From an uncultured Bacilli bacterium (GTDB lineage: Bacteria > Bacillota_I > Bacilli_A > RF39 > UBA660): a stretch of DNA of 64,000 nt. The DNA is taken from positions 6,510 through 70,509 of the forward strand of contig CAKPHY010000001.1 in the NCBI GenBank assembly GCA_934162285.1, in the 5' to 3' direction. The position numbers and the translations under genes were made by a program. Positions 41,441-62,173 of the stretch are shown one piece after another (positions within the stretch are counted from its first letter, which is position 1; each line of letters begins with the position of its first letter). The notes under the pieces are model-generated. The model did no database searches, had not been told where the DNA came from, and saw only the letters and a program-made list of their open reading frames with translations.

Positions 41441-42107
41441 TTTCTTCCTCCAATTTATAACCTAAGCCACGCACAGCTTTAATATTAACATTAGAACCAA
41501 TCGCTTTTAATTTTTTTCTTATGAATGATAAATATGCTTCTAGATTATTGGATTCGATTTCATTTTCAATTCCCCATACTTTATCATAGATTTGATCTTT
41601 AGATATTATTTGATTAGGATTTTTCATGAAGTTTTCTAATAGTTGTAGTTCTTTACAAACTAATAAAACAAATTCATTAGTTTTAATACATTTTAAAGTT
41701 GATGTTTTGATATCTAATTCTAAATCAGCATAAGATATATTTTTGGTTTTATTAATATTTAATTGAATGTTAATACGCGCTAATAATTCATCTATATGAA
41801 ATGGTTTTGTTAAATAGTCATTGGCACCATTTTCTAAACCATTTAATTTATCTTCTAAAGTTGATTTAGCTGTTAACATAATTATTTTACTATCAATTTC
41901 TTTTTCTCTTAATGTTTTTAGAATTTCAAAACCATTTTTATTAGGTAACATTACATCTAATATAATCAAATCATAAGCATTAGTTAAAGCTTTATATAAT
42001 CCTTCTTCACCATCGGTTGCAATATCTACTAAAAATTTTTCACTTTTTAATTTTGATGCAATGGCATCAGCTAAATTAAATTCATCTTCAATTATTAATA
42101 ATCGCAT
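41421..42107 (-). CDS. OmpR-family response regulator
   Basis: Receiver domain (IIEDE...D) plus winged-helix trans_reg_C. Confidence 0.88.
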   Translation of the reverse strand: MRLLIIEDEFNLADAIASKLKSEKFLVDIATDGEEGLYKALTNAYDLIILDVMLPNKNGFEILKTLREKEIDSKIIMLTAKSTLEDKLNGLENGANDYLTKPFHIDELLARINIQLNINKTKNISYADLELDIKTSTLKCIKTNEFVLLVCKELQLLENFMKNPNQIISKDQIYDKVWGIENEIESNNLEAYLSFIRKKLKAIGSNVNIKAVRGLGYKLEEENEKSSK

Positions 42108-43052: not shown

Positions 43053-44258
43053 TTAGTCTTTATAGTATTTAATGGTAAAAGTAGTTTTATCATTTTCTTT
43101 AGAACTTACACTTATTTTACCATTATTTTTTTCTATTATTGTTTTAGCTAAAGAAAGTCCAATACCAAAACTATCTTCGTTAGAATTTTCACCTTTATAG
43201 AAACGATCAAATATATGTTTTATGTCTTTATCATTAATTCCTATTCCATAATTTATTATTTCTATTTTAGAATATAATTTTTCATCGGAAGCATTTATGA
43301 TAATGTTTTTATCTTTGAAAGAATGTTCAATACTATTTTTAACAATATTAGTAAGAGCTTCTACTTGCCAATTAAAATCACAATAAATATTAAAGTCATT
43401 TTTAATATTTAAATCAATCTTAATATTTTTTAAATCACTTAAAGTTGATACATTATTAACTACTTTATTAACAATTAATTTAATATTATTAAAATCATTA
43501 TTATAATTAACGGCGTTAATATCAAATCTTGATAATTTTAATAAAGATTTAACTAAAAAATTTATATTATTTATTTCTCTATTTATATCATTTATAAAAT
43601 CATTTCTAACATTAGCATCCATATCGGGATCATCTATTATATTATCAAGCATAATACTTATCGACGTAAGTGGGGTTTTTAGTTGATGAGAAATGTCCTC
43701 AATTGATTTTTTTATATTATCTTTATCTTTATTAGAATTATATGCTTCTTCTTTTAGCATAACAGTTGTTTTATATATTTCATTTTTTAAAATTGATAAT
43801 TCATCTTCAGTATTATTATCTATATTTAGATAATAGTTTTTTCGATTTATTTGTTCAATTAAATTAGTAATTTCTTTTATTTTTTTACTTTGATTTTTTT
43901 TATTTATAAAAGATATTAAGATAAATAAAATAATAAAAATAATTATAATAGTATTATTGATTATTAAACTTTGAATATAATCTTTTTTACTATTTAATAT
44001 GAGATAATCATCATCAATATCAATTCCATATTCTTTTAAAACATTTTGAGAAATTACTTTACCATCTAGTATTTCTATTATATCTTTATTATTAACTAAG
44101 GGATATTTAATACTAACTTGATATATAATGCTATTTAATGTTTGATTATATCTGATTCTATTTTTATCGTTTAATTTTATATAAAAGATATTAAAGGCAA
44201 GGATAAAACTTAATATTATTAATACATAACTAATTATAATCTTTTTACTTTTCTTCAT
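43053..44258 (-). CDS. sensor histidine kinase
   Basis: H-box SHQLKTPLTSI; HATPase; two TM helices. Confidence 0.85.
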   Translation of the reverse strand: MKKSKKIIISYVLIILSFILAFNIFYIKLNDKNRIRYNQTLNSIIYQVSIKYPLVNNKDIIEILDGKVISQNVLKEYGIDIDDDYLILNSKKDYIQSLIINNTIIIIFIILFILISFINKKNQSKKIKEITNLIEQINRKNYYLNIDNNTEDELSILKNEIYKTTVMLKEEAYNSNKDKDNIKKSIEDISHQLKTPLTSISIMLDNIIDDPDMDANVRNDFINDINREINNINFLVKSLLKLSRFDINAVNYNNDFNNIKLIVNKVVNNVSTLSDLKNIKIDLNIKNDFNIYCDFNWQVEALTNIVKNSIEHSFKDKNIIINASDEKLYSKIEIINYGIGINDKDIKHIFDRFYKGENSNEDSFGIGLSLAKTIIEKNNGKISVSSKENDKTTFTIKYYKD

Positions 44259-44898
44259 TTTCGATTCTATAACCTATTCCTTTAATCGTGATTATGATAT
44301 CATTACCTATTTTTTCTCTTATTCTTTTCAAATAAACTGTTATGGTATTATCATTTACGTCATTGCCTGTTAAGTTATAAATATATTCGATTAAATAGTT
44401 TCTAGTAACAGCTTTGTTTAGATTAGAAAATAGTAAATATAAAATTTTTAATTCTAAAGAAGTTAAGTTAACAATCTCATTATTTTTATATACTTGCATT
44501 TTATCCATATCAAATTTAATATTTTTTACTTCAATAATTCTTGCATTTTTAGATAATATTTTATTTATTCTAGCTATTAATTCTCGTGTAGAAAATGGTT
44601 TAGTTATATAGTCATTAGCACCTATTTCTAAGCCTTTGACAATATCATCTTCACTATCTTTTGCTGTTAAAAAAATTGTTGGAATATTTAATTTTTTTAT
44701 GGTGTCTAGATATAAATCAAAACCATTACCATCAGGTAAACTAACATCTAATACTATTAACTGGGGTTGATAATTATTAATAAGATATTTACTAGAATTA
44801 ATAGAATTAGCTATTTCACATTCATAGCCATTACTTTTAAAAGCGTATTCTAGTCCTTTACAAATTGTTGAATTATCTTCGATCAATAATATTTTCAT
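44245..44898 (-). CDS. OmpR-family response regulator
   Basis: Receiver plus winged helix. Confidence 0.88.
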   Translation of the reverse strand: MKILLIEDNSTICKGLEYAFKSNGYECEIANSINSSKYLINNYQPQLIVLDVSLPDGNGFDLYLDTIKKLNIPTIFLTAKDSEDDIVKGLEIGANDYITKPFSTRELIARINKILSKNARIIEVKNIKFDMDKMQVYKNNEIVNLTSLELKILYLLFSNLNKAVTRNYLIEYIYNLTGNDVNDNTITVYLKRIREKIGNDIIITIKGIGYRIENEEK

Positions 44899-44955
44899 TA
44901 TTTCACTTCCTTAAACTCATTATAGCAATAAATAAGAGACTAAACTAGCCTCTTA

Positions 44956-47484
44956 TTAAATATTTTCATTTCTTATTGTTTCGATGATGTTATTATTTTT
45001 TACTTTATTAACAGAATATTTCATTAAAGTAAATATAAGAATAAACACAACACTGATACTAATAATAATTCCTTTGTAAGGTAAAACATAGTTGAATTCT
45101 ATTTCACCAATTAAAACTTTATAAATTACATAAGAAATTGCTATTCCGATTGGTAAACCAATAAGTAATGATTTAATGCAATAGAAGAAACTTTCTAAGA
45201 ATATCATTCTATTGAATTCATGATTAGTCATACCTATACTTTTAAGCATTGCAAATTCACTTTTTCTTAGTTCAATATTAGTAGTAATAGTATTAAAGAT
45301 ATTAGTAACTCCAATTAAAGCTATTACAATAATAAATCCATATAAAAATATAGCAACAATTAAATAAATATTATTCATAGATTTAAAGGTACTATCAATA
45401 TTTGCTATACTATAATTATCAAAGTTTGCAAGCATTTTAGTAATTTCGTCTTGAAGCGTATCAGGATTATCACAATTAATAAATATAGATATTTGATCTC
45501 TTTTCGGTAAGGTATCCATTACTTCATCACTGACGATTAAAATAGCATCACTATAATAATTTTCGTATCCCATTGGTCTTATATCGGTAACTTTAGCAAT
45601 TTCAATATCAAAGTCTTTTTCGGTTTCCTCGATCATTATTTTACTATTAATAATGTCACCAATCTTAATATCAAAAATAGAATAGCTTACTTTTTTAGCT
45701 TCATCGTCTTCGATAATCTTAATAATATCATTATTAATTAATATTCCTTTATTCTTAACTTTTTCATAATCAAGATTTAGCTTATCAACATATTTTTTAT
45801 ATTCTTTCTCACCAACGCTTAGCACAGTCAATGTTTTATTCTTAGCTTCATTACCATCATAACTATTATATTTAACTGCATCATTGGTATATTTTAAGTT
45901 TGCTTCTAACATAGAAGTGCGGATGACTGAATAATCTTTAATTCCTTCTAATTTGGTAATATTTTCTATTTGGTCATAGTTACTTAAAGCATCTTTAAAG
46001 ATATAAACATTTAAATTATAAGTATATTCACCAAACTCCATTTTAACAACGTTGAAAGCCATGTTTATAAAGTATGATAATGCGACATAAACAGCTACAC
46101 ATAATACTATGGATATAACTGTAGTTCGATATTTTTTCTTATTTCTTTTTATATTTTTATAAGATATTACACCACCGATTCCAAATAGTTTTTTTATTAG
46201 TTTTGGTGTTTTTAATTTTTTAGGATTGATTTTAATAGAACAACTATTTCTAATTGCTGCTATTGGGGATGTTTTAGATGCGATCTTTGATGCTTTTCTA
46301 GATGATAAGAAAATAGTAATGATACTTAATATTATAGAAAAAATAATTGCTAAAATTGATACTCTAAAGATTAAAAATCCTTCTATTACCATGGAATTTC
46401 CAATAAGAGCATTGACTACTTTAATTAGAATGAAGGAAGCAAGTATTCCACTTAATATTCCGAGTGGAATACCAATTATGGATAATAAGAAAGCTTCATA
46501 ATAAACATTTTTTTTAATTTGTTTACTTGTTGCTCCAACACTAGCAAGCATACCATATTGTTTTATTTTTTCGGTTATCGAAATGTTAAAACTATTTTTA
46601 ATGCAAAAAACGGAAGTAAATATTACTATAATTATAACTACAATAGCTAAGTTAATAATTACTTTCATTGTATCATCATTAAATGAGAAAGTTTCTAGTT
46701 CAATTAAATGCTCATTTATACCAAAACTATATTTAGGATTTTCTAAATCGCCAACAATATTCTGTGTTGTTTTTCGGTAATCTTTAAGTGCATCTTTAGT
46801 ATATCTTGCATAAATGTCATAAGTACCGCTTACACTATTAGATTTGAAAGTAACGAAAGTATAACCGGGAGCAGTGTAATATTCAAAACTTGGTCTTTCG
46901 ACGATACCAACTATTTTATAAGTTTTAGGGGTTGTATTTACTATTTCTTCTTCTGTTTCATTATTAAAGGGATTGCTTTGATTTAAGCTATATCCTTCAC
47001 TTACACGATCACCAACATTTAATGTAATTGTTTCCCCTATCTCAAGGGTAAGGCGACCATTAGTTTTTAAGTGTCTAGGGATAACTATTTCGGTATCGTT
47101 TTTAGGTAATTCGCCACTTATTAGTTGAAGTCTAGTGTTTTTAAAAGCATTTTTATCCATTTCTATTATGTAGGCATAGGGCTTATATTTATTTTTGACG
47201 CCATCAAGTTTAGCATATCCTATACCGTTAGTAACATAATAGGATTCAATACTTCTATTATTATCAAAATATTTTAAATCTTCTAAAGGAACATTATTAA
47301 AACTAATATGATAATCGCCTTTTCTTGTTTTTTCATAATTAATCATGCTTTCTTTAAAGCTTGATACCATTGAAGAAACGGCTGTAATTAAAGCAACACT
47401 AAGGATTATTCCTATAATAGTAACAATGCTTCTTTTTTTATTCAGAATTAAATTTTTATATGTTAATTTGTTTAAGAGTTTCAC
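44956..47484 (-). CDS. ABC transporter permease, FtsX/MacB-like (BceB-like)
   Basis: 842 aa; N-terminal TM followed by a large extracytoplasmic domain and two FtsX-type 4-TM bundles. Confidence 0.8.
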   Translation of the reverse strand: MKLLNKLTYKNLILNKKRSIVTIIGIILSVALITAVSSMVSSFKESMINYEKTRKGDYHISFNNVPLEDLKYFDNNRSIESYYVTNGIGYAKLDGVKNKYKPYAYIIEMDKNAFKNTRLQLISGELPKNDTEIVIPRHLKTNGRLTLEIGETITLNVGDRVSEGYSLNQSNPFNNETEEEIVNTTPKTYKIVGIVERPSFEYYTAPGYTFVTFKSNSVSGTYDIYARYTKDALKDYRKTTQNIVGDLENPKYSFGINEHLIELETFSFNDDTMKVIINLAIVVIIIVIFTSVFCIKNSFNISITEKIKQYGMLASVGATSKQIKKNVYYEAFLLSIIGIPLGILSGILASFILIKVVNALIGNSMVIEGFLIFRVSILAIIFSIILSIITIFLSSRKASKIASKTSPIAAIRNSCSIKINPKKLKTPKLIKKLFGIGGVISYKNIKRNKKKYRTTVISIVLCVAVYVALSYFINMAFNVVKMEFGEYTYNLNVYIFKDALSNYDQIENITKLEGIKDYSVIRTSMLEANLKYTNDAVKYNSYDGNEAKNKTLTVLSVGEKEYKKYVDKLNLDYEKVKNKGILINNDIIKIIEDDEAKKVSYSIFDIKIGDIINSKIMIEETEKDFDIEIAKVTDIRPMGYENYYSDAILIVSDEVMDTLPKRDQISIFINCDNPDTLQDEITKMLANFDNYSIANIDSTFKSMNNIYLIVAIFLYGFIIVIALIGVTNIFNTITTNIELRKSEFAMLKSIGMTNHEFNRMIFLESFFYCIKSLLIGLPIGIAISYVIYKVLIGEIEFNYVLPYKGIIISISVVFILIFTLMKYSVNKVKNNNIIETIRNENI

Positions 47485-47486
47485 AA

Positions 47487-48179
47487 TTATGCCTCCTTAA
47501 CAATTTTTCCATCTTCAATTTTAATTATTCTATCAGCTATCTCAGCTAATTCTAAATTATGAGTAATCATAATAATAGTTTGATTTAATTCTTTATTAGA
47601 TTTTCTAAGTAATTCAACAATCTCTTCACTAGCTTTAGAATCTAAATTTCCTGTAGGTTCATCAGCTAAAATTATAGATGGTTTTGTTATTAAAGCACGA
47701 CCTATAGAAGTTCTTTGTTGTTGTCCACCAGATAATTGATTTGGCAAATGATGACGTCTTCTTTCTAATCCTAAAAGAATTAACATTTCATTTAAATCTA
47801 TTCTATTTACACTTCTTCCATCAAGTTCTAAAGGTAAAGATATATTTTCTTCAACATCTAATATAGGTATTAAATTATAAAATTGATATATTAATCCAAT
47901 TTGTCTTCTTCTAAATATAGCAAGTTTATCATCATTCATACTAAAAATATCTTTATCATTAATATAAACTTTTCCACTAGTAGGTCTATCTACGCCACCT
48001 ATTAAGTGAAGAAGTGTACTTTTACCACTACCAGAAGCACCAACTATAGCCACAAATTCACCTTTCTTAACACTAAAAGATACATTATCTAAAGCAACAA
48101 CTTTAGTGCTATCTTTCCCGTATACTTTTGTTAAATTTTCAACTTTTAATATTTCCATATATTTTTTCCTTTCATTCAA
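47487..48179 (-). CDS. ABC transporter ATP-binding protein (MacB/BceA-type)
   Basis: Walker A GASGSGKST, signature LSGGQQQR, Walker B ILADEPT. Confidence 0.9.
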   Translation of the reverse strand: MNERKKYMEILKVENLTKVYGKDSTKVVALDNVSFSVKKGEFVAIVGASGSGKSTLLHLIGGVDRPTSGKVYINDKDIFSMNDDKLAIFRRRQIGLIYQFYNLIPILDVEENISLPLELDGRSVNRIDLNEMLILLGLERRRHHLPNQLSGGQQQRTSIGRALITKPSIILADEPTGNLDSKASEEIVELLRKSNKELNQTIIMITHNLELAEIADRIIKIEDGKIVKEA

Positions 48180-48225: not shown

Positions 48226-48246
48226 AGATCAAAATTATTTTGATCT
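48226..48246 (-). terminator. palindromic terminator AGATCAAAAT-t-ATTTTGATCT
   Basis: Perfect 10-bp arms, followed on the minus strand by TTTATTTTTG. Confidence 0.6.
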
Positions 48247-48498
48247 TAATTAAATATTTATTGGAATTTTCTTGTTAATAATTGAAAGAAAGTTGTTTTA
48301 TTTATATCTTCATTAACAGTTAATTCAACTACTTCATAAGAATTATTAATTCTTACTTTCATTGTTCCTACTTTGTCACCTTTTTTTATTGGATCTTTTA
48401 TATTGTTTACATCAATTGTCAAATCTATTTTAGGATCTTCGTCCATTTTATTTTTCAAAAATGTTACTTTTTTACTTGGTACTATCTCAACTTCATCT
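48234..48498. repeat. direct repeat copy A (265 bp, about 95% identical to 50441..50705)
   Basis: Base-by-base comparison of the two segments; homology ends abruptly at 48498/48499 and 50705/50706. Confidence 0.8.
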
Positions 48499-48503
48499 AT
48501 CAA
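48258..48503 (-). pseudogene. duplicated 3' fragment of the DD-carboxypeptidase gene (PBP5 C-terminal domain remnant)
   Basis: 81 aa, over 90% identical to the C-terminal 80 aa of the 50453..51589 product; TTG start with an in-frame stop two codons upstream; lies inside the 265-bp direct repeat. Confidence 0.7.
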
Positions 48504-48598: not shown

Positions 48599-50308
48599 TT
48601 ATTCGATTGCTTCAAATAAACTTGTATTTTCTAAACTAGGATAATATTTGTATAATGTTTCTTTTAAGTATTTTCCTTTTTCTAATAAATGGCTATATTT
48701 TTTGATATTACTATCCTTTCCTTCAAAACATATACTTTCAAATACTCTTGCCATATCTTCCGCTGGAAAAGTGTGACTATAATAATCTACGAAGTAAACA
48801 TTATCATCAGCAGTCACTCCTATAGTATATTCAGTTCTGTTAGTTACTTTGTATGAATAAGAGTACTCATATTTTTTCGGATTAAATGTCGACCATTCAG
48901 AAAAATACTCTCCTTTTGATTTTAATTTGTTTTCTATAGTGTGCATTAGTTCATGACATACATAGGTTTCTAGTGGTATTTGGGATATATTTAGAGCTAT
49001 TAAATACATATTTTCATATACACTTGTGTAACCAGCTGGATCAAAGTTTTGAGATGAAGCATCTGCCGGTTTTAACTCTCCAGTTAAATATATATTTAAA
49101 CCTTTATAGTCATTTTCATATAAAGAATCATAAAAATCCTTTGTTAGTTTACTAAGTATATTTTCCACAGTATTGATACTACTATAAATACCTCCTAATT
49201 CATCATATTCTTTTGCTAAAAAATCTGGAGACTTTATTATGGCTTTATCTTTTATGTAAAGATTAACATTATATTTATTTTTAATATCATTTATTTTATT
49301 TGTTAATTCATTGTTAATTTCATTAATATATTCTTCTGTAGTAAAAGATTTAAATGTATAGTTTTCATCTATAATATAGTAATCATATTTATTATTTATT
49401 AATTTTAAGAATATTTTATTATCAACTATACTTATACTTGATACGTTTTTAACATTATATGTTTTAATTTCATCTTTAGTTAAATTAATTATTTCTAGTC
49501 TTTCTAGATTGTTATTATAAACATATAGATTATTATTATATAAATAATTTATGTAGGAATTTTCTCTATTTATGCTAATAGCATACTCATTGTATTTATT
49601 ACTTACTAAATCATATACTTTTACTTTATCATTAGATATAGTATAAATACCATTTTCATATTTAGAATATGCTGTTAGTTTATTTTCTTCACATGTATTA
49701 TTCTTAACATTACATATTATATTTTTATTTGTATCAAAATTGCTATATAGCAAATATATGTTGCCTTTTATATTAACATTATCTATTAGTTCATATCCTT
49801 CATAATCTTTACTAAGTGAAAATATTTCTTTTTCATTTTTATCATATATTTTTCCATTGGTATTAATACTATAATAATTATTGCCATAGTAAGCTATGTT
49901 TATGCCTTTTAATGTTAATTCTAATTTCCCTTTGCTATTATATAAATATGTATTTTCATTGTTTGTACATCCTATTAAATCATTATATTTTTTACATTCG
50001 TAATAATTTATATTATCTAATAGTTTTTCTTTTTCACCACTATAAATATTATATTTATATAGTACTTTATTATCTTCAATTCCATATATATAATATATTT
50101 CTTTATCATCAATAACATCAGAATTAATATTATCGTTTTCGTTTTCTTTTAGTGTTACTGCATGTACATTATCAGTTATTAAGTCTCCCTTTATTTCTAT
50201 ATTATTTTCTATGCTTTTATTTAGAGATACTTTTTTATAGATTATTATAGCTAATAATATAACAATTAACATTATTAATATTTTAATTATCTTTTTCATT
50301 ACTTTCAT
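48599..50308 (-). CDS. AT-rich secreted protein with a Y/N-rich repeat region and a C-terminal HExxH (zinc-metallopeptidase-like) motif
   Basis: Signal anchor KKIIKILIMLIVILLAIIIY; YVCHELMHTIE near the C-terminus; very low GC compared with the flanking genes. Confidence 0.45.
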   Translation of the reverse strand: MKVMKKIIKILIMLIVILLAIIIYKKVSLNKSIENNIEIKGDLITDNVHAVTLKENENDNINSDVIDDKEIYYIYGIEDNKVLYKYNIYSGEKEKLLDNINYYECKKYNDLIGCTNNENTYLYNSKGKLELTLKGINIAYYGNNYYSINTNGKIYDKNEKEIFSLSKDYEGYELIDNVNIKGNIYLLYSNFDTNKNIICNVKNNTCEENKLTAYSKYENGIYTISNDKVKVYDLVSNKYNEYAISINRENSYINYLYNNNLYVYNNNLERLEIINLTKDEIKTYNVKNVSSISIVDNKIFLKLINNKYDYYIIDENYTFKSFTTEEYINEINNELTNKINDIKNKYNVNLYIKDKAIIKSPDFLAKEYDELGGIYSSINTVENILSKLTKDFYDSLYENDYKGLNIYLTGELKPADASSQNFDPAGYTSVYENMYLIALNISQIPLETYVCHELMHTIENKLKSKGEYFSEWSTFNPKKYEYSYSYKVTNRTEYTIGVTADDNVYFVDYYSHTFPAEDMARVFESICFEGKDSNIKKYSHLLEKGKYLKETLYKYYPSLENTSLFEAIE

Positions 50309-50440: not shown

Positions 50441-50705
50441 ATTATTTTGATCTTAATTAAATATTAATTTGAATTTTCTTGTTAATAATTGAAAGAAAGT
50501 TATTTTATTTATATCTTCATTAACAGTTAATTCAACTACTTCATAAGAATTATTAATTCTTACTTTCATTGTTCCTACTTTGTCACCTTTTTTTATTGGA
50601 GCTTTTATATTGTTTAAATCAATTGTCAAATCTATTTTAGGATCTTCATCCATTTTATTTTTCAAAAATGTTACTTTTTTACTTGGTACTATCTCAACTT
50701 CATCT
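50441..50705. repeat. direct repeat copy B (3' end of the intact dacB-like gene plus 12 bp downstream)
   Basis: See copy A. Confidence 0.8.
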
Positions 50706-51589
50706 TTGTATCCTTTTTCAACTTTAGCTTTTTTTAAAACTTTGTCGGTATTTATAGCAGTACCAAGTTCATATTGAGCATAGGCGTAATCTAACATTTC
50801 GCTTGCTTCCTTATTTCTTAATTCGCTTGATGGTTCATCTAATACTATAGCTAAGATACGCATATTATTTTTTTTAGCTGTTGCTACTAAACAATATCCT
50901 GCTGTTTTAGTATATCCAGTTTTTAAACCATCAACACCGTCATAAAATCTAACTAGTTTATTAGTATTAACTAACCATAATCTTCTATTGGTATTTTCTC
51001 TTAAATAACTTTCATATAAAGATGTATATTTAAATATTTCTTCATGCTTTACTAATTCTAAAGCTATTTTAGCTAAATCATTAGCAGTTGTATAGTGTCC
51101 TTCAGTTGTTAAGCCGTGAGAATTTTTAAATACTGTATTAGTTAAACCTAATTCTTTTGCTCTTTTATTCATAAGACTAACAAAATTTTCTTCAGTTCCA
51201 GCTATTTTTTCAGCTAAAGCAACTACAGCATCATTACCGCTCGCGATAGCTATTCCTTTAAAAAGATCTTCAACGGTCATTCTTTCATTGGTTTCTAATA
51301 GTATTTGACTTCCACCCATACTAGATGCATGAGCACTTACAGTTACTACTTGATTCCAAGATAAAACACTTTTGTCAATTGCTTCGACGATCAAAAGCAT
51401 TGACATCATTTTAGTTAAAGATGCTGGTTCTAATTTTTCGTGGGGATTTTTTGAAAATATTATTTCACCTGTGCTTGCTTCTAAAAGCAATGCTGCTCTA
51501 GCATTTGTTGCTAAAGTTACCTCAGCACGAACAAAAAAAGGAATAAAACACAATAAAATTAATATAAATTTTTTCACATTCCACCTCAT
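50453..51589 (-). CDS. D-alanyl-D-alanine carboxypeptidase (low-molecular-weight PBP, PBP5/DacB-like) with a PBP5_C domain
   Basis: SxxK ASLTKMMS, SGN (IASGND) and KTG (KTGYT) motifs; signal peptide. Confidence 0.85.
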   Translation of the reverse strand: MRWNVKKFILILLCFIPFFVRAEVTLATNARAALLLEASTGEIIFSKNPHEKLEPASLTKMMSMLLIVEAIDKSVLSWNQVVTVSAHASSMGGSQILLETNERMTVEDLFKGIAIASGNDAVVALAEKIAGTEENFVSLMNKRAKELGLTNTVFKNSHGLTTEGHYTTANDLAKIALELVKHEEIFKYTSLYESYLRENTNRRLWLVNTNKLVRFYDGVDGLKTGYTKTAGYCLVATAKKNNMRILAIVLDEPSSELRNKEASEMLDYAYAQYELGTAINTDKVLKKAKVEKGYKDEVEIVPSKKVTFLKNKMDEDPKIDLTIDLNNIKAPIKKGDKVGTMKVRINNSYEVVELTVNEDINKITFFQLLTRKFKLIFN

Positions 51590-51652
51590 TTAAAAATATG
51601 AAAAAAAATAGTAAAAATTACTATTCTTTTAATAAACTTATATGCTTTATTG

Positions 51653-53116
51653 TTATGCAGTGGCTTTTTTTATGTATATATAGCACATATCATCTTGATA
51701 ATACAAATCATATTCTTCCATTTCATCAAGAAAATAATGTAATTGGTTGACTTTATATGTTAGTATTACATCAAAATCATAATGTTCTAACAATTCACGG
51801 GTATTTTCTCTTACTTCGCCTATTTTTAAAGAGTTTGGTAATATTTCTGAACTAAATACATCACCTAGACCATATGAAAATATTTTTACATCATCAAGTA
51901 AATTGTATTGATCTAGTTTATATAATAGATAGCCACCACCACCAAAATCATTAAATAGTCTTTTAGGTTTTAATTCGCCTATTTTTTTTACAGCTTCGTC
52001 ACTATAGTATCCATCATTATCAATAACACCAACTGTTTTAAGAGTTTTTATTTGCTTATATCCTGCTAATGTACACGTAGCTACTAATAATAAGCAAAAA
52101 CAAATGTAAATTGGTTTTTCTAACTTTCTGAATGGTTTTTTTAAAGTTTCATACACCTCATTGCTTACAAAGAAATATTTTCCTAAATTCCACATTGAAT
52201 AGATTGCATACATTCCTATAAATCTTTGGCTTTTCAAACACATATAAAAGAAAAGTAATTGAAATGCAATTTCATAGAATTTCATTTTATGTTTTGTTAA
52301 TATTAGATTAAAGATAGGAATAGCTATTATTATGAAAATATACATCCCGAAAAGGCCGTGGAAATCTGGGCTCATCCATTCTACAATATTATTTAACATG
52401 TTATTATCAGCCATGTTAGTAAATGGATATAGGATCATTTTATATCCAAATGGATTTAAACAACTAGCAATTAATGTTAATATTAATACTTTTATTAACG
52501 TTTGAATTTGAGTTTTTGAAAGATTATTAGATGACCAACGTTCTTCTTTAAATTTAAATATTTTTAAAAATAGTTCACATAATAGAACACCTATTATAAA
52601 GATATATGATAAAGAAGAAGAGCCACCATGGAAATTTACCCATAATATTTGTAATATAGGAATTGTATAAATTAATTTTTGATATTTTTTTTCATCATCT
52701 AAATAGCTAAATAGTATATAAACTAAATATGCCATAAAAACTAGACTCAAGATATATGGACGTGGTCCTGTAACTTTAAAAAATACAGTAACCATTAATA
52801 AATAAACTAACTTAAAATCAAATATTTTCTTTAAATTTACCTTTAACATTTTTGCTAGCAATATATATAAAATTAAAAATATTACTAACATTATAGCCAG
52901 ACACCCTACTGGACCTAATTTGTACATTATTAACTCTGTTAGCCATTCATGTGATGTCCATTCATATGGACCATGCCATGTAAATAGTTCGCTTTTTGGA
53001 ATTGTATGGGTATTACTTATGTAATGTCCAATAACATAATGCCAAAACCAATCATTATCAGTTATTGGTTCCAATGACATGATTAACCCCATAATAAACG
53101 TAAATATAACTACCAT
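51653..53116 (-). CDS. polytopic membrane protein with a C-terminal soluble domain (Wzy/ligase-like polymer-handling protein?)
   Basis: About 10 predicted TM helices and a 120-aa C-terminal hydrophilic domain; immediately downstream of the ATP-grasp, racemase and flippase genes. Confidence 0.35.
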   Translation of the reverse strand: MVVIFTFIMGLIMSLEPITDNDWFWHYVIGHYISNTHTIPKSELFTWHGPYEWTSHEWLTELIMYKLGPVGCLAIMLVIFLILYILLAKMLKVNLKKIFDFKLVYLLMVTVFFKVTGPRPYILSLVFMAYLVYILFSYLDDEKKYQKLIYTIPILQILWVNFHGGSSSLSYIFIIGVLLCELFLKIFKFKEERWSSNNLSKTQIQTLIKVLILTLIASCLNPFGYKMILYPFTNMADNNMLNNIVEWMSPDFHGLFGMYIFIIIAIPIFNLILTKHKMKFYEIAFQLLFFYMCLKSQRFIGMYAIYSMWNLGKYFFVSNEVYETLKKPFRKLEKPIYICFCLLLVATCTLAGYKQIKTLKTVGVIDNDGYYSDEAVKKIGELKPKRLFNDFGGGGYLLYKLDQYNLLDDVKIFSYGLGDVFSSEILPNSLKIGEVRENTRELLEHYDFDVILTYKVNQLHYFLDEMEEYDLYYQDDMCYIYIKKATA

Positions 53117-53128
53117 AAAGTTTTCCTC

Positions 53129-54151
53129 CTACAACTTTATTTTCTTAAGTTCTTCACCAAGAACATCTTCTATTTCTTTTAAATGACCTGTTTTAGAATT
53201 TTTCAATTTATAATGTTGGATAAGACCATATCCAGGATATTCATTACCTTCTACTATAACAGGACCTTTTTCAGAGAAAGCAACATCCCAACCGATGTAG
53301 CGCACTTCAAGAATTTCTTTGTGAGCCTCAATACACATATCAAAAGCTTTTTGTACATCTTTGATACAAACATCTTTAAATTTTTTACGTGTAAGTGGAT
53401 GAGATTCATAAATATTGCCATAATCATCAATAACGTTGCTATTTATTTTACCATCTTTATCAAACGAGCAATATAAATCATTAGTACAACCTATAATCGC
53501 CGTTTCGTCTTGATTTATTCTTAAAGCATTATTTAATAGATGAATTTTACCATCTTTATCTACCAATGTAATTACTCTAAAAGAATTTACTACATTAGGA
53601 TTTATTTCGTTTAATTCTTTACTTTGAACTATAGCTTCTTCAACTAAAAATTGCCCATGTTCTTTTAATTTATGATACAAATTTTCTACTTCGTAGTTTT
53701 TAACTATTATTTTCTTAACTCCATGTCCACCTTCACCTATTGGAGTTTTAGCAAATACTACTTCTTGATTTTCTAAAAATTCTTTAAATTCTTCTAATGT
53801 TGCAATTTTTAGATTTATATAGTTGCGTTTTAAATATTTTTTAAAATATTGATTAAAAACTAATTTATCATTTAGAAGTACAGTGTATTTGGGATTATTT
53901 AAATATGCAAGTATTTTGTAAAACTTTTTAGCTGTCACGAATGTATCTTTTTCTTTTTTACTTAAATTGATATAATCACCACGAAAATAATCTGTGTATC
54001 CACAACCTCTTGTCAAGAAGTTGATAAATATATCAGCTTTTATATATAATTTTGATTTCCCAGTATTTTTAGAAATTGTTTCAATGTGCTTGTTTAATCT
54101 TGTTTTATCTATTCCTCTTATTTTTCTTAAGATCCATCTTGTTACATTCAT
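53129..54151 (-). CDS. sugar-transfer-associated ATP-grasp (ATP-grasp_ST) family ligase
   Basis: 340 aa; ATP-grasp fold signatures (…EGGHGVKKI…, …RYIGWDVAF…EGN) resembling the PF14397-type. Confidence 0.5.
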   Translation of the reverse strand: MNVTRWILRKIRGIDKTRLNKHIETISKNTGKSKLYIKADIFINFLTRGCGYTDYFRGDYINLSKKEKDTFVTAKKFYKILAYLNNPKYTVLLNDKLVFNQYFKKYLKRNYINLKIATLEEFKEFLENQEVVFAKTPIGEGGHGVKKIIVKNYEVENLYHKLKEHGQFLVEEAIVQSKELNEINPNVVNSFRVITLVDKDGKIHLLNNALRINQDETAIIGCTNDLYCSFDKDGKINSNVIDDYGNIYESHPLTRKKFKDVCIKDVQKAFDMCIEAHKEILEVRYIGWDVAFSEKGPVIVEGNEYPGYGLIQHYKLKNSKTGHLKEIEDVLGEELKKIKL

Positions 54152-55323
54152 ATTTCTCCCTCTTTGTTTTCCGTATAGATTTTTTTATTGTTATTGCCAA
54201 TATTTATCAGCATTTCTGCTAGGCCAATTCCTTCAAATCGGCTTAACGTTCCCAATGAAATTCCTTTACCTAAAATTATTACTGTATCATTTATTGACAC
54301 TTTTTTATCTATAGAAATGGTCATCATGTTCATTCCTATACTTCCCACAACATCGTATTTTTTATCATTTATCATTACATATCTTCCATTGTTTTTATTT
54401 CCTATTCCATTGGCATAACCTATAGGAAGTATTGCTATTCGCATATTTTTCTTAGCACGATAAGTGCAACCATAACCAATATATTCGCCCTTTTTTACTT
54501 CTTTAATTTGAATTATTCTTGTTTGCATTGACATTAATGGTTTCACATTAATCGTAGTATTATTAATTGTTTTACTTAATTTGTAAATTTTTTGATAGCA
54601 AATATTTCTTAGAATTTTTATTTTATTTTTTATCCCCTTATTACTTATTTTATAGCCTACATCATATCCATACATTAAAATTCCTAGTCTTGTTCCATTC
54701 ACATATGGCAATTTTTCATGAGATAACATAACTATCGAATTAGCTAAATGAATAATAGGTATTTTAGTTAAATCAATTAAAGATGTTAACTCTTGAAATT
54801 TTTCTACTTGCTCATCGTAATGTTTATCAATTAAACCTGTTGTTGCAAAGTGTGTAAAGATACCTTCTATAAAAATATTTTTATTTGTATCTTCAAATAT
54901 TTTTTTTACTTCATTTTTATTTTTTATACCTAATCGATTCATTCCTGTATCAAGCTTTAGATGTACTTTTATTTTTTGAGATAAATTAATTTTTTTCAAT
55001 TCATTATAGTAGTTATAATCATGTATTGTTAATGTTATATTGTTCATAGCTGCTTCTTTTAATCTACTTAATGATATTGGTTGCAAGCACAAGATAGGAA
55101 TTTTTTCATTCATTTTTCTTATTTCTAGTGCTTCATCTAAATATGATACAGCTAAATAATTTATGCCACCTTTTATTAATTCATTAACTATATCTTTTCC
55201 ATGACCATAGAAGTTAGATTTAACAACTCCGATATAGTATTTATATTGAGGATGATCTTCTATAATTGTTTCAACATTTTTAGAAACAAATTCTAAATTA
55301 ATTTTTACAATTGTATCATTCAT
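54148..55323 (-). CDS. alanine racemase-family PLP-dependent enzyme
   Basis: PLP-lysine motif IGVVKSNFYGHG (cf. Alr AVVKANAYGHG); 391 aa with a TIM-barrel plus beta domain. Confidence 0.6.
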   Translation of the reverse strand: MNDTIVKINLEFVSKNVETIIEDHPQYKYYIGVVKSNFYGHGKDIVNELIKGGINYLAVSYLDEALEIRKMNEKIPILCLQPISLSRLKEAAMNNITLTIHDYNYYNELKKINLSQKIKVHLKLDTGMNRLGIKNKNEVKKIFEDTNKNIFIEGIFTHFATTGLIDKHYDEQVEKFQELTSLIDLTKIPIIHLANSIVMLSHEKLPYVNGTRLGILMYGYDVGYKISNKGIKNKIKILRNICYQKIYKLSKTINNTTINVKPLMSMQTRIIQIKEVKKGEYIGYGCTYRAKKNMRIAILPIGYANGIGNKNNGRYVMINDKKYDVVGSIGMNMMTISIDKKVSINDTVIILGKGISLGTLSRFEGIGLAEMLINIGNNNKKIYTENKEGEI

Positions 55324-56941
55324 ATTTTCTCCTATTTATTTTTAGTTTTTTTAATATTTTGTCTATTTCTTCTTCACTAAAGATTTTAAAAATTAATTTT
55401 GTTTTATACGTAATATATATGTATATTGGAACAAATATTAGTCCTGAAATTCCTACTTTAAGCAAATTATAATTGATATTATTTAATAGACTTTTCTTTA
55501 AAATAAACGAAGTTAATAGTAATAATGTACTTACAATAGTTATTTTAAATAATAATTTAAATATTTCTTTATATTTGAAATTCAATTCTTTTTTTAGATT
55601 TATGAATACTATAGTAATAGATATTAATTGTCCTATCATTGTTGAAATGATTGTACCTATAATGGGATAAAATTTAATTTTGTTTAATAAAAGAATCAAG
55701 GGAATATCCAAAATGGCATTTACAACTATACCTACAATAGTGTTTAGATAAACTAACTTATATTTTTTCATTCCCTGCAAAATCATATTTATTACTAAAT
55801 GAATACTAAATAGTATACTAACAACAGATAAAACTGCTAGAATTACTCCACCATAAGGGCTACTTCCATAAAAGATAGAATATATTTCTTTTGAATATAA
55901 AATTATAAAGAATGAAATAGGTATGCTTACAAAATTTATAATATTAATGGCTTGATTAAATTTTTGATTTAATTCTTTATGCTGATTTTTTAAATAATTA
56001 TCAACAATAAAAGGTACAATACTTGCACAAAGACCTAAAGCTAAAGTATTTATAATCATACAAATTTTAGGTGCCCATGTTACAATTATGCTGGCAATAA
56101 GTTCACATTGACTAGCATCATATCCTATTAAATATAGTCCTTTAATAATAAACTTGAAATCGATTAATTCATATATATTTTGAGAAACTGATATTATGGT
56201 TGCTGGCAAAGCATATATGGCTATTTTTTTTATAATATTTTTAGAATTATTTAGATTTTTTTGAGGTATTTCTTTAACTGAAATATATTTTTTACGTTTT
56301 TTATTTAAATATAAATATGCTATTATGGCTCCTATTGTTGTTCCTGAAAGGGCAAAAGATATTCCAACAGGAATGCTAAAATGCAAAATATTTATTGTTA
56401 AATAAGAACCAACAAGAACAACAAATATTCTAACTAATTGTTCTATTAGTTGGCTAAATGTTGATGGAGTTATATATTTATTACCTTGCATGTATCCTCT
56501 AGTAACGCTTAAAAATGGTACTATCAATAAGCAGAACGAAATTACTCTTATTACTAAAACTATTGATTCTATTGATTGACCACCCTTAATATCGCCTATT
56601 ATAAATAGTCCAATGGATCGAGCAAAGATAAAAAGTACTAAAAAAGCGATAGTGGAAATGATCGAAATTATTTTAGTAGATACTTTATACGCATATTCAC
56701 GTTCTTCTATTTGATTTAAGGCATTATATTCGGCAATCATTATACATATTGCAGTGGGAATTCCACTTGTTGATATGTTTAAAAGTAAATTATATACATT
56801 ATATGCATATGAATATAAAACGCCGCCATCTGTTCCTACTATCTTATAAAATGGTATTACATATAGTACTCCCAGTATTTTAGTTATTATTAATAGTATA
56901 TAAGAAATGATTGTACCTTCTGTAAAACTATTTTTTTTCAT
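55316..56941 (-). CDS. MOP-superfamily polysaccharide/lipid-II-type flippase (Wzx/MurJ-like)
   Basis: 541 aa with about 14 TM helices, typical of the oligosaccharide flippase family. Confidence 0.65.
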   Translation of the reverse strand: MKKNSFTEGTIISYILLIITKILGVLYVIPFYKIVGTDGGVLYSYAYNVYNLLLNISTSGIPTAICIMIAEYNALNQIEEREYAYKVSTKIISIISTIAFLVLFIFARSIGLFIIGDIKGGQSIESIVLVIRVISFCLLIVPFLSVTRGYMQGNKYITPSTFSQLIEQLVRIFVVLVGSYLTINILHFSIPVGISFALSGTTIGAIIAYLYLNKKRKKYISVKEIPQKNLNNSKNIIKKIAIYALPATIISVSQNIYELIDFKFIIKGLYLIGYDASQCELIASIIVTWAPKICMIINTLALGLCASIVPFIVDNYLKNQHKELNQKFNQAINIINFVSIPISFFIILYSKEIYSIFYGSSPYGGVILAVLSVVSILFSIHLVINMILQGMKKYKLVYLNTIVGIVVNAILDIPLILLLNKIKFYPIIGTIISTMIGQLISITIVFINLKKELNFKYKEIFKLLFKITIVSTLLLLTSFILKKSLLNNINYNLLKVGISGLIFVPIYIYITYKTKLIFKIFSEEEIDKILKKLKINRRKYE

Positions 56942-57057
56942 TTTTACCTCTTAATCTATATAACGCTATATTTTATAGCTTTATTTATATTTTATCATTA
57001 CATCAACTAGATGTCTATTATTTATTCTTATAATGAAAAGATTGAAAAAAATAATTT

Positions 57058-58299
57058 TTATTCATTCCAACCTAATATTTTTATTAATTTTTTATCGGCA
57101 TAATTATATGCTGATAATGGATAGTTTTGACGATCTGTCGAATTGGAAGTAGTTAAAACATCAACAATTTTTCCATCTTTTTCAACTAATCCCGAAACAA
57201 CTATAGTATGAACGTAAGAATTATTAGCACCAACTTGCATAATATCGCCTTTTTCAGCATAAAAATAGTTTACATCAGTTACAGAACATAATCCTGCTCC
57301 TGTATTATTTCTGGCATAACTATAAAAATAACTTACACCTGTCCATGATGGTGTTCTGCCTTTTTCAGCAGTTGTTTCATCAACTAAACTTCCATAGTAT
57401 TTCCACTTATAATTACCAGTTACATCCATAGGTATACCCCCGGCATAAATAACTTGAGAAGCGTAATTTTGACAATTTCCTCCATATACAGCAAAATCAA
57501 AATAATCACTATTCCTAGTTAATGCATATTTTTCTAGATAAATATAAGCGGAATTGTGGTCATAACTATGATCACATTTTTTAGTAGTAATACCTTTATT
57601 TTCTAGATATGATTCGTAATATAATTTTTCATTTTCAACTGATTTTTCAACTTTTTCTAAAGCATTATTTACTAATTCGATTAAATCTTTTTTAGTTTCA
57701 GTTTCATCTTTAGTAATTTTATAGTAATCAGTTATTATATTATAGAAATCAGCTGCTTTTTCTACTTTAACTAATTCGTTATTGGCATTAAAGGTAAAAA
57801 TATTTTTTACTCCTTGCGTAACAGATTCTATATCATTCATAAAATTGAAAGTTACTTTGCTATCTTCTAAAATTGTTATAGTAATTAAATCATCATTATT
57901 TTTTATTTCTTTAATTGTTAAAGTGTAATTACCATCTTTTAGTTTTAAATCATTTCTTTGTAATAAGCGATATCTAACAAAATAATTCATAGCCATTTGT
58001 GTTAAATTTGCTTCATTTTGAGCTGATGGACTAAAAAGATAAGTAAAATTATATTCATTTAATTCTTTCATTGTTAGAAAATATAAATCAAAGTAAGAAA
58101 TAATTTTATTTTTTATTTCATCATTTATTGATAAACCACTTATATTTTTAAAATCTTTTAAAAATGTTGTTTGTTTAGGGGTATAAGAATCTTTTTCTTT
58201 AGTTGAAGTGCATGATTTTACTAAAAATATAATTCCTATTATTAATACTAATAAAATAATTATGGGTTTCTTTTTTAATTTAATTTTTCGTTTATTCAT
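57058..58299 (-). CDS. putative amidase-domain (Amidase_6, papain-like) cell-wall protein
   Basis: N-terminal signal anchor; C-terminal region with GGNCQNYASQ...H typical of the putative amidase domain. Confidence 0.5.
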   Translation of the reverse strand: MNKRKIKLKKKPIIILLVLIIGIIFLVKSCTSTKEKDSYTPKQTTFLKDFKNISGLSINDEIKNKIISYFDLYFLTMKELNEYNFTYLFSPSAQNEANLTQMAMNYFVRYRLLQRNDLKLKDGNYTLTIKEIKNNDDLITITILEDSKVTFNFMNDIESVTQGVKNIFTFNANNELVKVEKAADFYNIITDYYKITKDETETKKDLIELVNNALEKVEKSVENEKLYYESYLENKGITTKKCDHSYDHNSAYIYLEKYALTRNSDYFDFAVYGGNCQNYASQVIYAGGIPMDVTGNYKWKYYGSLVDETTAEKGRTPSWTGVSYFYSYARNNTGAGLCSVTDVNYFYAEKGDIMQVGANNSYVHTIVVSGLVEKDGKIVDVLTTSNSTDRQNYPLSAYNYADKKLIKILGWNE

Positions 58300-60886: not shown

Positions 60887-60976
60887 GTTAAACCTCCTAG
60901 TTATATTATAGCAAATTATTATCAAAAAAAATATGTGAAGTTATTTTTTATATGTTATAATTTTATTGGTGAGATA

Positions 60977-62173
60977 ATGCGACTAAAAATAATGATAATT
61001 ATCATCTTTTTATTTATGCCTTTTGTTAAAGCTTTAGATACTAGGTCTAATAATATTATTTTATATAATTTAAACAATGATGAAATTTTGTATGAAAAAA
61101 ATAGCCACGAGCCTATTAAAATTGCTAGTTTAACAAAAGTAATGACAGGTATTGTTGCTCTTGAAAAAATTGATGATCTTGATAGAGAAGTTTTAATCAC
61201 TGCAGAAATGTTAGATGGTTTAATAGAATCTAATGCTTCGGTTGTCGGTTTAAAAGTTAATGATATTGTTACTTATCGAGATCTTTTATATGCCTTATTA
61301 CTACCTTCTGGAGGGGACGCTGCTAATGCTCTTGCGATTAATGTTGCTGGTTCTATAGATAATTTTGTTAAATTAATGAATATTAAGGCTGGTTCTTTAG
61401 GACTAAGCAATACTTTTTTTACAAATGCCACCGGACTTGATAATGGTGATAATCATTCTAATGTTTATGATGTTGCTACTATTCTTAGATATGCTTTAAA
61501 AAATGATGAGTTTAAAAAAATATATGAAACTAGAAAATATACGATGTCAAATGGAATAAAATTAAGATCCTCATTAGAAAAAAACAGTGAAAAGTTACAC
61601 CTTAATATTGATTATATTAAAGGTGCTAAAACTGGAACTACTACTTTAGCTGGTGTTTGTTTATCTTCGACATTTAATTATAATGATATAAATTATTTAA
61701 TGGTAAGTTGTGATTCTTCTTTTAAAAACCTTACTTATAATGTATTTGATGCTGGAGTTTTATATAATTATTATGCTAATAATTATCACCTACGAAGTAT
61801 TTTAAAAAAAAATAAAGTTATTAAATCTATTAATAACAAATATTCTAGTAATAAAGTTAATTTATATCCTGATACTGATTATTCTTTATATATGCTTGAT
61901 AATGATTACAAGAATTTAAAATTTACTTATGATGGTTTAGAAACTATTGACATTTATACTAAAGATAAAATTATTGGTAAGTATGAAATTAGCTTAAATA
62001 ATAATGTTTTAAAAACAATTGATGTGTATAAACCAGATAAAATAGAATTTTCTATTTTCAATTTTATATTTGTTAATTATATTTATTTTTTGGCTATTCT
62101 AATTTTTATTGTTTTAATTTTTATTATTAATTTATTTTTGAAAAAGAAAAAGAGTTTTAAAACTGAAATTTAA
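60977..62173 (+). CDS. D-alanyl-D-alanine carboxypeptidase (DacA/PBP5-like) with a C-terminal TM anchor
   Basis: ASLTKVMT (SxxK), SGGD, KTGTT motifs; signal peptide MRLKIMIIIIFLFMPFVKA; C-terminal hydrophobic anchor. Confidence 0.8.
   Translation: MRLKIMIIIIFLFMPFVKALDTRSNNIILYNLNNDEILYEKNSHEPIKIASLTKVMTGIVALEKIDDLDREVLITAEMLDGLIESNASVVGLKVNDIVTYRDLLYALLLPSGGDAANALAINVAGSIDNFVKLMNIKAGSLGLSNTFFTNATGLDNGDNHSNVYDVATILRYALKNDEFKKIYETRKYTMSNGIKLRSSLEKNSEKLHLNIDYIKGAKTGTTTLAGVCLSSTFNYNDINYLMVSCDSSFKNLTYNVFDAGVLYNYYANNYHLRSILKKNKVIKSINNKYSSNKVNLYPDTDYSLYMLDNDYKNLKFTYDGLETIDIYTKDKIIGKYEISLNNNVLKTIDVYKPDKIEFSIFNFIFVNYIYFLAILIFIVLIFIINLFLKKKKSFKTEI

Follow-up and report, generated by a model that had tools for sequence, protein, structure and literature searches.

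A racemase/ATPgrasp_ST gene pair proposed to tailor a peptidoglycan precursor in uncultured gut Bacilli and Ruminococcus

The gene cluster and its conserved core

The 64-kb stretch of contig CAKPHY010000001.1 analysed here, from an uncultured Bacilli bacterium and referred to as the window, is part of a Firmicute chromosome, with DNA of 22-35% GC and nearly all genes on the minus strand; polA, polC and a cluster of ribosomal-protein-sized genes lie near the module that is the subject of this report, an overlapping pair of racemase and ATP-grasp ligase genes. Four consecutive minus-strand genes encode a flippase (55316-56941), the racemase (54148-55323), the ATP-grasp protein (340 residues; 53129-54151) and a 487-residue membrane protein (51653-53116), and an Amidase_6 gene (57058-58299, also on the minus strand) is separated from the flippase by 116 nt. 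A first-pass annotation had combined these five genes, in a setting of two DD-carboxypeptidases, into one cell-envelope modification pathway. A check of the open reading frames (ORFs) confirmed all of them, together with the 8-nt overlap of the racemase with the flippase, the 4-nt overlap of the ATP-grasp gene with the racemase and the 12-nt gap between the ATP-grasp and membrane-protein genes. Four of the five domain assignments were likewise confirmed by Pfam and NCBIfam, but the Wzy/ligase-like label of the membrane protein was not.

The ATP-grasp protein has 515 close homologues (59-76% identity), nearly all of which are unnamed gut-metagenome proteins. A one-genome-per-species scan yielded 80 loci, among them those of Ruminococcus bromii ATCC 27255, Ruminococcoides intestinale and many metagenome-assembled genomes (MAGs) labelled Bacilli, Tenericutes, Mycoplasma, Erysipelotrichaceae or Clostridia; the window and two further contigs bring the set to 83. 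A homologue of the racemase is encoded no more than 8 kb from the ATP-grasp gene in 61 of these 83 loci, one of the flippase in seven, of MurT and GatD in 12 and of a CofE-like protein in 19; the membrane protein, the Amidase_6 protein and the product of a 569-codon gene of the window are never found beside it in the other loci sampled. The five-gene set is a mosaic: its core has two genes, which in the window's clade are extended to a block of three, and the remaining neighbours are unrelated. The pairing of the racemase with the ATP-grasp protein therefore stands beyond chance, but the five genes do not form one conserved pathway. In R. bromii ATCC 27255 the pair (WP_101029790 and WP_101029791, the latter being the ATP-grasp protein) stands alone between TrkAH and pyruvate:ferredoxin oxidoreductase (PFOR). 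Among the nearest relatives of the window, locus L093 has the order flippase, racemase, ATP-grasp followed by an unrelated coiled-coil protein, and L094 and L001 have the racemase and ATP-grasp genes without the flippase. With clade-specific search patterns the ATP-grasp clade was confirmed in only 155 stretches among 185,579 species genomes, which suggests that the unit is an accessory modification on a core pathway.

Co-transcription of the four genes from the flippase to the membrane protein is plausible in the window genome, with the membrane protein probably co-transcribed with the module. The minus strand shows no terminator-like site from 51600 to 57000, and a weak promoter-like site (TAGACA-17-TAAAAT with TG, minus strand, 56989..57017) lies in the 116-nt gap upstream of the flippase; the promoter scan returned 104 sites against 112 expected in shuffled sequence and has no statistical power in such AT-rich DNA. 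No riboswitch or T-box that could serve as a clue to the amino acid was matched in Rfam, either in the window or in seven loci.

The ATP-grasp protein matches ATPgrasp_ST (PF14397) at 122.6 bits, above the gathering threshold of 31.4, so that a Pfam hidden Markov model search bears out its original label. Its AlphaFold model (predicted local distance difference test, pLDDT, 94) has a standard ATP-grasp core in which the usual pre-ATP-grasp domain is replaced by an all-helical region (residues 1-107). Residues Lys96, Arg109, Lys135, Glu171, Arg192, His251, Asp289 and Asn303 are invariant among 50 family members, and Lys135, Glu171, Asp289 and Asn303 account for the nucleotide- and Mg-binding positions. 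Foldseek returned Ddl, PurK, LysX/ArgX, RimK, PsnB and BacD as generic ATP-grasp matches with template-modelling (TM) scores of 0.37-0.48, those to Ddl, PurK, RimK and LysX at probability 1.0. A search of PDB sequences with the family profile found no match to any solved structure, and neither Dala_Dala_lig_N nor Dala_Dala_lig_C was matched by Pfam at E <= 0.01. Among 1.84 billion representatives the clade forms a single 50% cluster (626 bits), separated from the next full-length match at 327 bits; the wider family counts 7,166 representatives at E <= 0.001 and includes tandem proteins, one protein joined to a CapA-like domain and two lineages in which a MurT-type Mur ligase is part of the same polypeptide. 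A role as a substitute for Ddl is excluded for at least one carrier, L001, since a canonical Ddl is encoded there 7.5 kb upstream of the module. Judged from its family and motifs, the protein is probably a cytoplasmic ATP-dependent carboxylate-amine ligase and the anchor of the conserved module.

The racemase is a fold-type III pyridoxal phosphate (PLP) enzyme of the alanine-racemase family, with matches to Ala_racemase_N (155.7 bits), Ala_racemase_C (98.3 bits) and TIGR00492 alr (250 bits against an equivalog cut-off of 168). The catalytic lysine (VVKSNFYGHG) and tyrosine (IGYANG), equivalent to Lys39 and Tyr265', are retained, as are the Arg-Leu and Lys positions of the Alr scaffold. Compared with the Clostridioides difficile Alr structure 4luy, however, 'icMDQ' is replaced by 'igMNM' (MDQ to MNM), GYADG by GYANG and 'tinYEv' by 'glaEml', the last of which places an alanine at the position of Tyr354 (Geobacillus stearothermophilus numbering). 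All 52 full-length linked racemases compared, from the Ruminococcus clade as well as the Bacilli-like MAGs, have MNM, lack Tyr354 and carry an insert of 30 residues between the two domains. Position 354 is never tyrosine in these proteins but mostly alanine, glycine or serine, and GYADG has become GYNNG or GYANG in most of them. Tyr354 is strictly conserved in alanine racemases, where it sets the specificity for alanine, and its equivalent is asparagine in VanT, proline in BsrV, alanine in Bar and threonine in Lyr (PMC4542195; PMC3485190). The enzyme of the window is not a VanT either: it scores 190.7 bits against a cut-off of 460 and 119 against 900 with the NCBIfam models, has no transmembrane segment and carries alanine rather than asparagine. 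Since Tyr354 is missing, the racemase is not a strict Alr and is probably a dedicated partner of the ATP-grasp protein with relaxed or altered specificity.

At about 60% identity, conservation between the Bacilli-like MAGs and the Ruminococcus clade is very high. In most of the 61 loci the racemase lies directly upstream of the ATP-grasp gene on the same strand, with a divergent arrangement in about ten, and the pairwise distances of the two proteins are correlated (r = 0.87). Even the nearest outgroup ATP-grasp gene, encoding a protein of 39% identity, abuts a gene of the alanine-racemase family without the tyrosine, in reversed order. The view of the two as a functional pair is upheld by this recurrence and co-evolution; no description of the pairing was found in the literature searched.

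Several arrangements around the ATP-grasp family were observed in addition. The CofE-like protein, of about 232 residues and with a weak F420_ligase match, is encoded at L015:8103-8801, L024:9125-9838 and 17 more loci; the window does not encode it. Copies from Ruminococcus and from 'Bacilli' MAGs are 77-97% identical and occur in more than one arrangement beside the pair, and the protein may be a further component of the module. At L053 (7756-11014) ATPgrasp_ST is present as three paralogues in tandem, of which the first is interrupted by a frameshift; a phage-type integrase lies about 1 kb upstream of the array. At L090:1054-3006 an outgroup ATPgrasp_ST gene is followed directly by one for a radical-SAM protein resembling lysine 2,3-aminomutase, so that the family is again joined with an enzyme making a non-standard amino acid.

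Association with lipid II genes and proposed role

An indication of the substrate comes from MurT and GatD, which amidate D-isoglutamate on lipid II and not on the soluble nucleotide precursor (PMC4155827). In 11 Ruminococcus loci a divergent racemase is followed by MurT, GatD and the ATP-grasp gene, and in L063 the MurT-GatD pair is divergent from the racemase/ATP-grasp pair; neither MurT nor GatD was found in the window. Three outgroup loci, representing two fusion lineages, encode ATPgrasp_ST::MurT fusions together with GatD beside members of the flippase family of the window. Counting the closely related loci once, the ATP-grasp family is associated with lipid II tailoring and this flippase family in about four independent cases.

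Two of the fusions (786-788 residues, 43% identical to each other) can be described individually. Fusion P0263 (L092:981-6314) is followed by GatD, a flippase 45% identical to that of the window and a PAP2 phosphatase. Fusion P0267 (L095:6225-11062) comes after a flippase 37% identical to that of the window and before GatD; a MurA-like gene is located nearby. In both loci the genes have the appearance of a compact operon of a low-GC bacterium for tailoring lipid II and exporting it.

The flippase of the window has about 14 hydrophobic segments and belongs to the MOP superfamily, with Pfam matches to Polysacc_synt (77 bits) and MatE. MurJ models give conflicting values (PF03023, 28.8 bits against 27.4; TIGR01695, 32 against 235), the best NCBIfam match is to SpoVB (TIGR02900; 139 bits, far under the cut-off of 372) and the IMG label of the protein is 'O-antigen/teichoic acid export membrane protein'. 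No second murJ is present in the 64-kb window. The protein is probably a lipid II flippase of the YtgP/SpoVB-like MurJ type, which would be a core function. Homologues of 35-61% identity lie directly upstream of the racemase and ATP-grasp genes in L004, L048, L062, L068, L078 and L093, and the seven flippase-adjacent loci are scattered through the window's clade. The link to the flippase proposed in the first-pass annotation is thus real within that clade. Its alternative targets, peptidoglycan or a secondary wall polymer, can be narrowed, in that the adjacency to MurT/GatD, the ATPgrasp_ST::MurT fusions and the occurrence of the flippase family beside those fusions make peptidoglycan the most likely one.

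On the strength of this gene context, the interpretation to which we give about an even chance of being correct is that the racemase and the ATPgrasp_ST protein form the functional unit, the latter being a side-chain ligase that adds a D-amino acid to a peptidoglycan precursor before it is flipped. The racemase, an Alr scaffold with a side-chain pocket widened by the replacement of Tyr354 by alanine, would make the D-amino acid; this could be D-Ala, but the wider pocket argues for a larger residue. The cytoplasmic ATP-grasp protein would then convert a carboxylate to an acyl-phosphate and form an amide between the D-amino acid and the stem peptide of UDP-MurNAc-peptide or lipid II, so that a side chain or branch would be added on the inner membrane face, at the same stage as that of MurT/GatD. 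The flippase would export the modified lipid II. What we infer in this sequence of steps is a peptidoglycan precursor as substrate, lipid II as the cargo of the flippase, the amino acid involved and which way the ligation runs. For the more general proposal, that the ATPgrasp_ST proteins of this clade are an unrecognized class of peptidoglycan-precursor ligases which, with a PLP racemase lacking Tyr354, place a D-amino-acid branch or substituent on lipid II, we estimate a chance somewhat below even. On that view the ATPgrasp_ST::MurT fusions would be enzymes that tailor lipid II in two steps.

Several observations weigh against this interpretation. In 19 loci, all from one clade, there is no racemase within 10 kb, and the MurT fusions are also without a nearby racemase, so that a D-amino acid is not obligatory for the ATP-grasp family; the recurrent neighbours of the racemase-less loci are housekeeping genes (RadA, PyrH, RRF and YebC) in which no functional pattern is seen. 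The 11 loci with MurT, GatD and the ATP-grasp gene in a row are close relatives of one another, with MurT identities of 82-85%, and represent a single event, leaving the four or so independent associations counted above. The fold matches of the ATP-grasp protein do not tell its substrate, and no PF14397 member has been characterized biochemically in the literature searched. The racemase scores above the cut-off of NCBI's alr equivalog model, and D-Ala could still come from this enzyme alone. Finally, the Pfam name of PF14397 and one outgroup polysaccharide locus (P0244) point to glycan rather than peptide acceptors.

The last of these points leads to an alternative that is nearest to the view of the first-pass annotation, in which the ATP-grasp protein would join D-Ala to a sugar carboxylate, such as that of a uronic acid, in a wall-polysaccharide or teichoic-acid precursor, the flippase would export the polymer and the membrane protein, which has a GT-C fold as described below, would act on it in the window genome. 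The 'sugar-transfer associated' name of the family, the surroundings of P0244 (GT2 glycosyltransferases, a pyruvyl transferase and GH25), the IMG name of the flippase and the position of the GT-C gene 12 nt downstream of the ATP-grasp gene all agree with such a glycopolymer amidation, as does the amidation of glucuronate in the Campylobacter jejuni capsule by the related TupA-like ATP-grasp protein Cj1438C (PMC11800379). However, the annotated clade neighbourhoods hold no initiating transferase, UDP-sugar dehydrogenase or cytoplasmic glycosyltransferase, the R. bromii module stands alone between TrkAH and PFOR, the GT-C gene is joined to the ATP-grasp gene in the window only and the linkage to MurT/GatD indicates lipid II; the probability of this alternative is small but appreciable. 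A similar tension surrounds the possibility that the ATP-grasp protein is a dipeptide ligase making D-Ala-D-X or D-X-D-Ala from D-Ser or another D-amino acid supplied by the racemase, with MurF loading the dipeptide and the stem terminus altered as in VanC/VanG-type systems, here by a non-Ddl ligase. Substitution of Tyr354 is the hallmark of VanT serine racemases (PMC4542195), vanT-G-Cterm is the second-best NCBIfam match of the racemase (190.7 bits), the top Foldseek match of the ATP-grasp protein is the Staphylococcus aureus Ddl and the links to precursor-pathway genes are equally compatible with this activity. The racemase nevertheless has alanine and not asparagine at position 354 and no VanT membrane domain, the ATP-grasp protein lacks the N-terminal domain with which Ddl binds the first D-Ala, dipeptidases of the VanXY type, VanX and VanY are absent among the neighbours examined and the MurT fusion favours lipid II over free amino acids, so that we assign a dipeptide ligase only a small probability.

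The module might also be no module at all: the racemase would be the sole alr and the flippase the sole murJ, and the ATP-grasp protein a mere neighbour with an unrelated function. Such a housekeeping cluster would account for the TIGR00492 score, for the RefSeq name 'alanine racemase' of the R. bromii orthologue, for the lack of a second alr or murJ in the 64-kb window and for the adjacency of the flippase family to core lipid II genes, but it is improbable in view of a racemase subfamily that lacks the strictly conserved Tyr354 and carries a clade-specific insert, occurs in Bacilli-like MAGs as well as in the Ruminococcus clade and has evolved together with the ATP-grasp protein, in a pairing that survives many rearrangements and is present in an outgroup. 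Export of a D-amino-acid dipeptide or small metabolite by a MOP transporter, as in bacilysin-type systems, would be consistent with outgroup locus L086, where a MatE transporter is divergent from its ATP-grasp-racemase pair, and with the presence of BacD and other L-amino-acid ligases among the fold matches. The window flippase is nonetheless of the SpoVB/YtgP type rather than a MATE exporter of drugs or metabolites, this role would not account for the PAP2 neighbours or the fusions with MurT/GatD, and so high a conservation, about 60% identity from the Ruminococcus clade to the Bacilli-like MAGs, is not usual in secondary metabolism, which together make a secreted peptide highly improbable.

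Neighbouring genes in the window

The 487-residue membrane protein, labelled Wzy-like in the first-pass annotation, has no Pfam or NCBIfam match, and none of its 153 homologues carries a Pfam domain. A model search gave no match to Wzy_C or an O-antigen ligase, and the AlphaFold model (pLDDT 80.8) has a GT-C fold instead, with Foldseek matches to STT3 (E 5e-4, TM 0.51), PglB, ArnT and ALG9 at modest TM scores of 0.41-0.51; assignment as a Wzy or O-antigen ligase was accordingly rejected. Asp20 and Asp22 in the first loop are invariant among 22 sequences and constitute the acidic motif of GT-C enzymes. In L081, L082/L083 and L085 a GtrB/CsbB-like GT2 glycosyltransferase (310-317 residues, with C-terminal transmembrane helices) is encoded directly before the homologue of the membrane protein, the two genes adjoining or sharing one base, and this order is found in three of the four relatives' genomes and four of the five loci examined. 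A GtrA family protein is present as well in L082 and L083, which belong to one genome; L081 and L085 have the pair beside the dcw cluster, and L084 has the membrane-protein homologue without a partner GT2. The likeness to GtrA/GtrB/GtrC-type (CsbB/YfhO-like) systems, which concerns this protein only, thus consists of the GT-C fold, the acidic first outer loop and the context of its relatives; it differs in matching no named GT-C family model, and neither a GT2 nor a GtrA partner was found in the window. The protein is, as modelled, a GT-C glycosyltransferase of a separate extracytoplasmic glycosylation system of the GtrA/GtrB/GT-C type and a passenger at this locus. The export and attachment of a lipid-linked precursor by the flippase and a Wzy-like protein, as previously proposed, is rejected because the membrane protein has this GT-C fold and the Amidase_6 protein is not a conserved partner.

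The Amidase_6 protein (90.7 bits) and the two DD-carboxypeptidases are ordinary neighbours of the module. The latter are a DacA-like Peptidase_S11 protein (50453-51589, minus strand; 260 bits) and a second Peptidase_S11 protein (60935-62173, plus strand; 156 bits). Part of the setting ascribed to these hydrolases does recur, a DacA homologue being encoded about 6.5 kb downstream of the ATP-grasp gene in 12 Ruminococcus loci, but the second carboxypeptidase and the Amidase_6 gene do not. A further cell-wall hydrolase is encoded at 7962-9557 (minus strand), a 531-residue protein in which Fn3_assoc/CHB_HEX_C domains are combined with an N-acetylmuramoyl-L-alanine amidase domain (Amidase_3) at the C-terminus.

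The 3' end of dacA (residues 296-378, the PBP5_C domain) is duplicated as a direct repeat of 265 nt with 98% identity (48234-48498 and 50441-50705). The copies flank the gene for the 569-residue protein (48599-50308, minus strand), and the downstream copy gives an 81-residue ORF (48258-48503), an arrangement that points to a recent insertion or duplication. The 569-residue protein has no Pfam or NCBIfam match; it has an N-terminal transmembrane segment and an HExxH-like motif (VCHELMHT) near the C-terminus and may be a membrane-anchored metallopeptidase. Further along the minus strand (43053-48179) a MacB/FtsX-type ABC permease (842 residues) and ATPase are followed by a histidine kinase and response regulator, a layout that resembles a module for both sensing and detoxifying peptide antibiotics; a second histidine kinase/response regulator pair is encoded at 40241-42107. 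At 34503-37074 (minus strand) the gene for an AMP-binding (adenylating) enzyme overlaps that for a 292-residue protein with a 2-oxoacid_dh-type acyltransferase domain.

Relation to known systems and implications

The operon of aslA, encoding an ATP-grasp D-Asp ligase, and racD makes the Lys-D-Asp branch of peptidoglycan (PMC4155827). The window module resembles this AslA (Aslfm)/RacD system of Lactococcus and Enterococcus faecium in being a two-gene racemase and ATP-grasp operon, in the proposed addition of a D-amino-acid side chain to a peptidoglycan precursor in the cytoplasm and in standing alone, needing only common precursors. It is not a member of that system because both enzymes come from different families: the ligase is a PF14397 protein with an all-helical N-terminal region and not of the AslA family, and the racemase is a PLP-dependent enzyme of the Alr family, whereas RacD is a cofactor-independent Asp/Glu racemase. 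With MurT/GatD, to which the ATP-grasp family is tied by adjacency and gene fusion, the proposed reaction has in common the ATP-dependent change of a stem-peptide carboxylate on lipid II just before flipping, but MurT is a Mur-ligase homologue using ammonia from GatD, and the window enzyme has the ATP-grasp fold, with a racemase as its partner.

The VanT/VanG pathway for D-Ser likewise combines an Alr-family racemase substituted at Tyr354 with an ATP-grasp ligase and alters peptidoglycan precursors (PMC4542195). In addition to the differences in the racemase noted above, the window ligase is not of the Ddl family, and neither VanXY-type, VanX and VanY peptidases nor VanRS were found with the module. 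Cj1438C shows that an ATP-grasp enzyme can make an amide on a carboxylate of a cell-surface glycan (PMC11800379). It was considered as an ATPgrasp_ST member and rejected, since it belongs to the TupA-like Pfam family according to the same source; it is fused to a GT2, lies in a capsule locus, uses serinol or ethanolamine phosphate and is an analogue only. What is new here is the racemase/ATPgrasp_ST module as a proposed system for tailoring a peptidoglycan precursor in the cytoplasm; systems in which an ATP-dependent ligase has a racemase of its own for this purpose are known.

The peptidoglycan type of Ruminococcus is given as unknown in a recent review (PMC11382707). R. bromii is a cultivable keystone gut species in which the link between this clade and lipid II tailoring can be tested. 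The side chains of the stem peptide govern cross-linking, sensitivity to lysozyme and antibiotics and the way in which NOD receptors of the host sense muropeptides from the gut. Thousands of proteins belong to PF14397, with neither a characterized representative in the literature searched nor a solved structure, and the 'alanine racemase' of annotation pipelines is in this case a protein without the residue that determines alanine specificity. If the proposed role is correct, R. bromii and uncultured gut Bacilli with small genomes would have an undescribed peptidoglycan chemotype.

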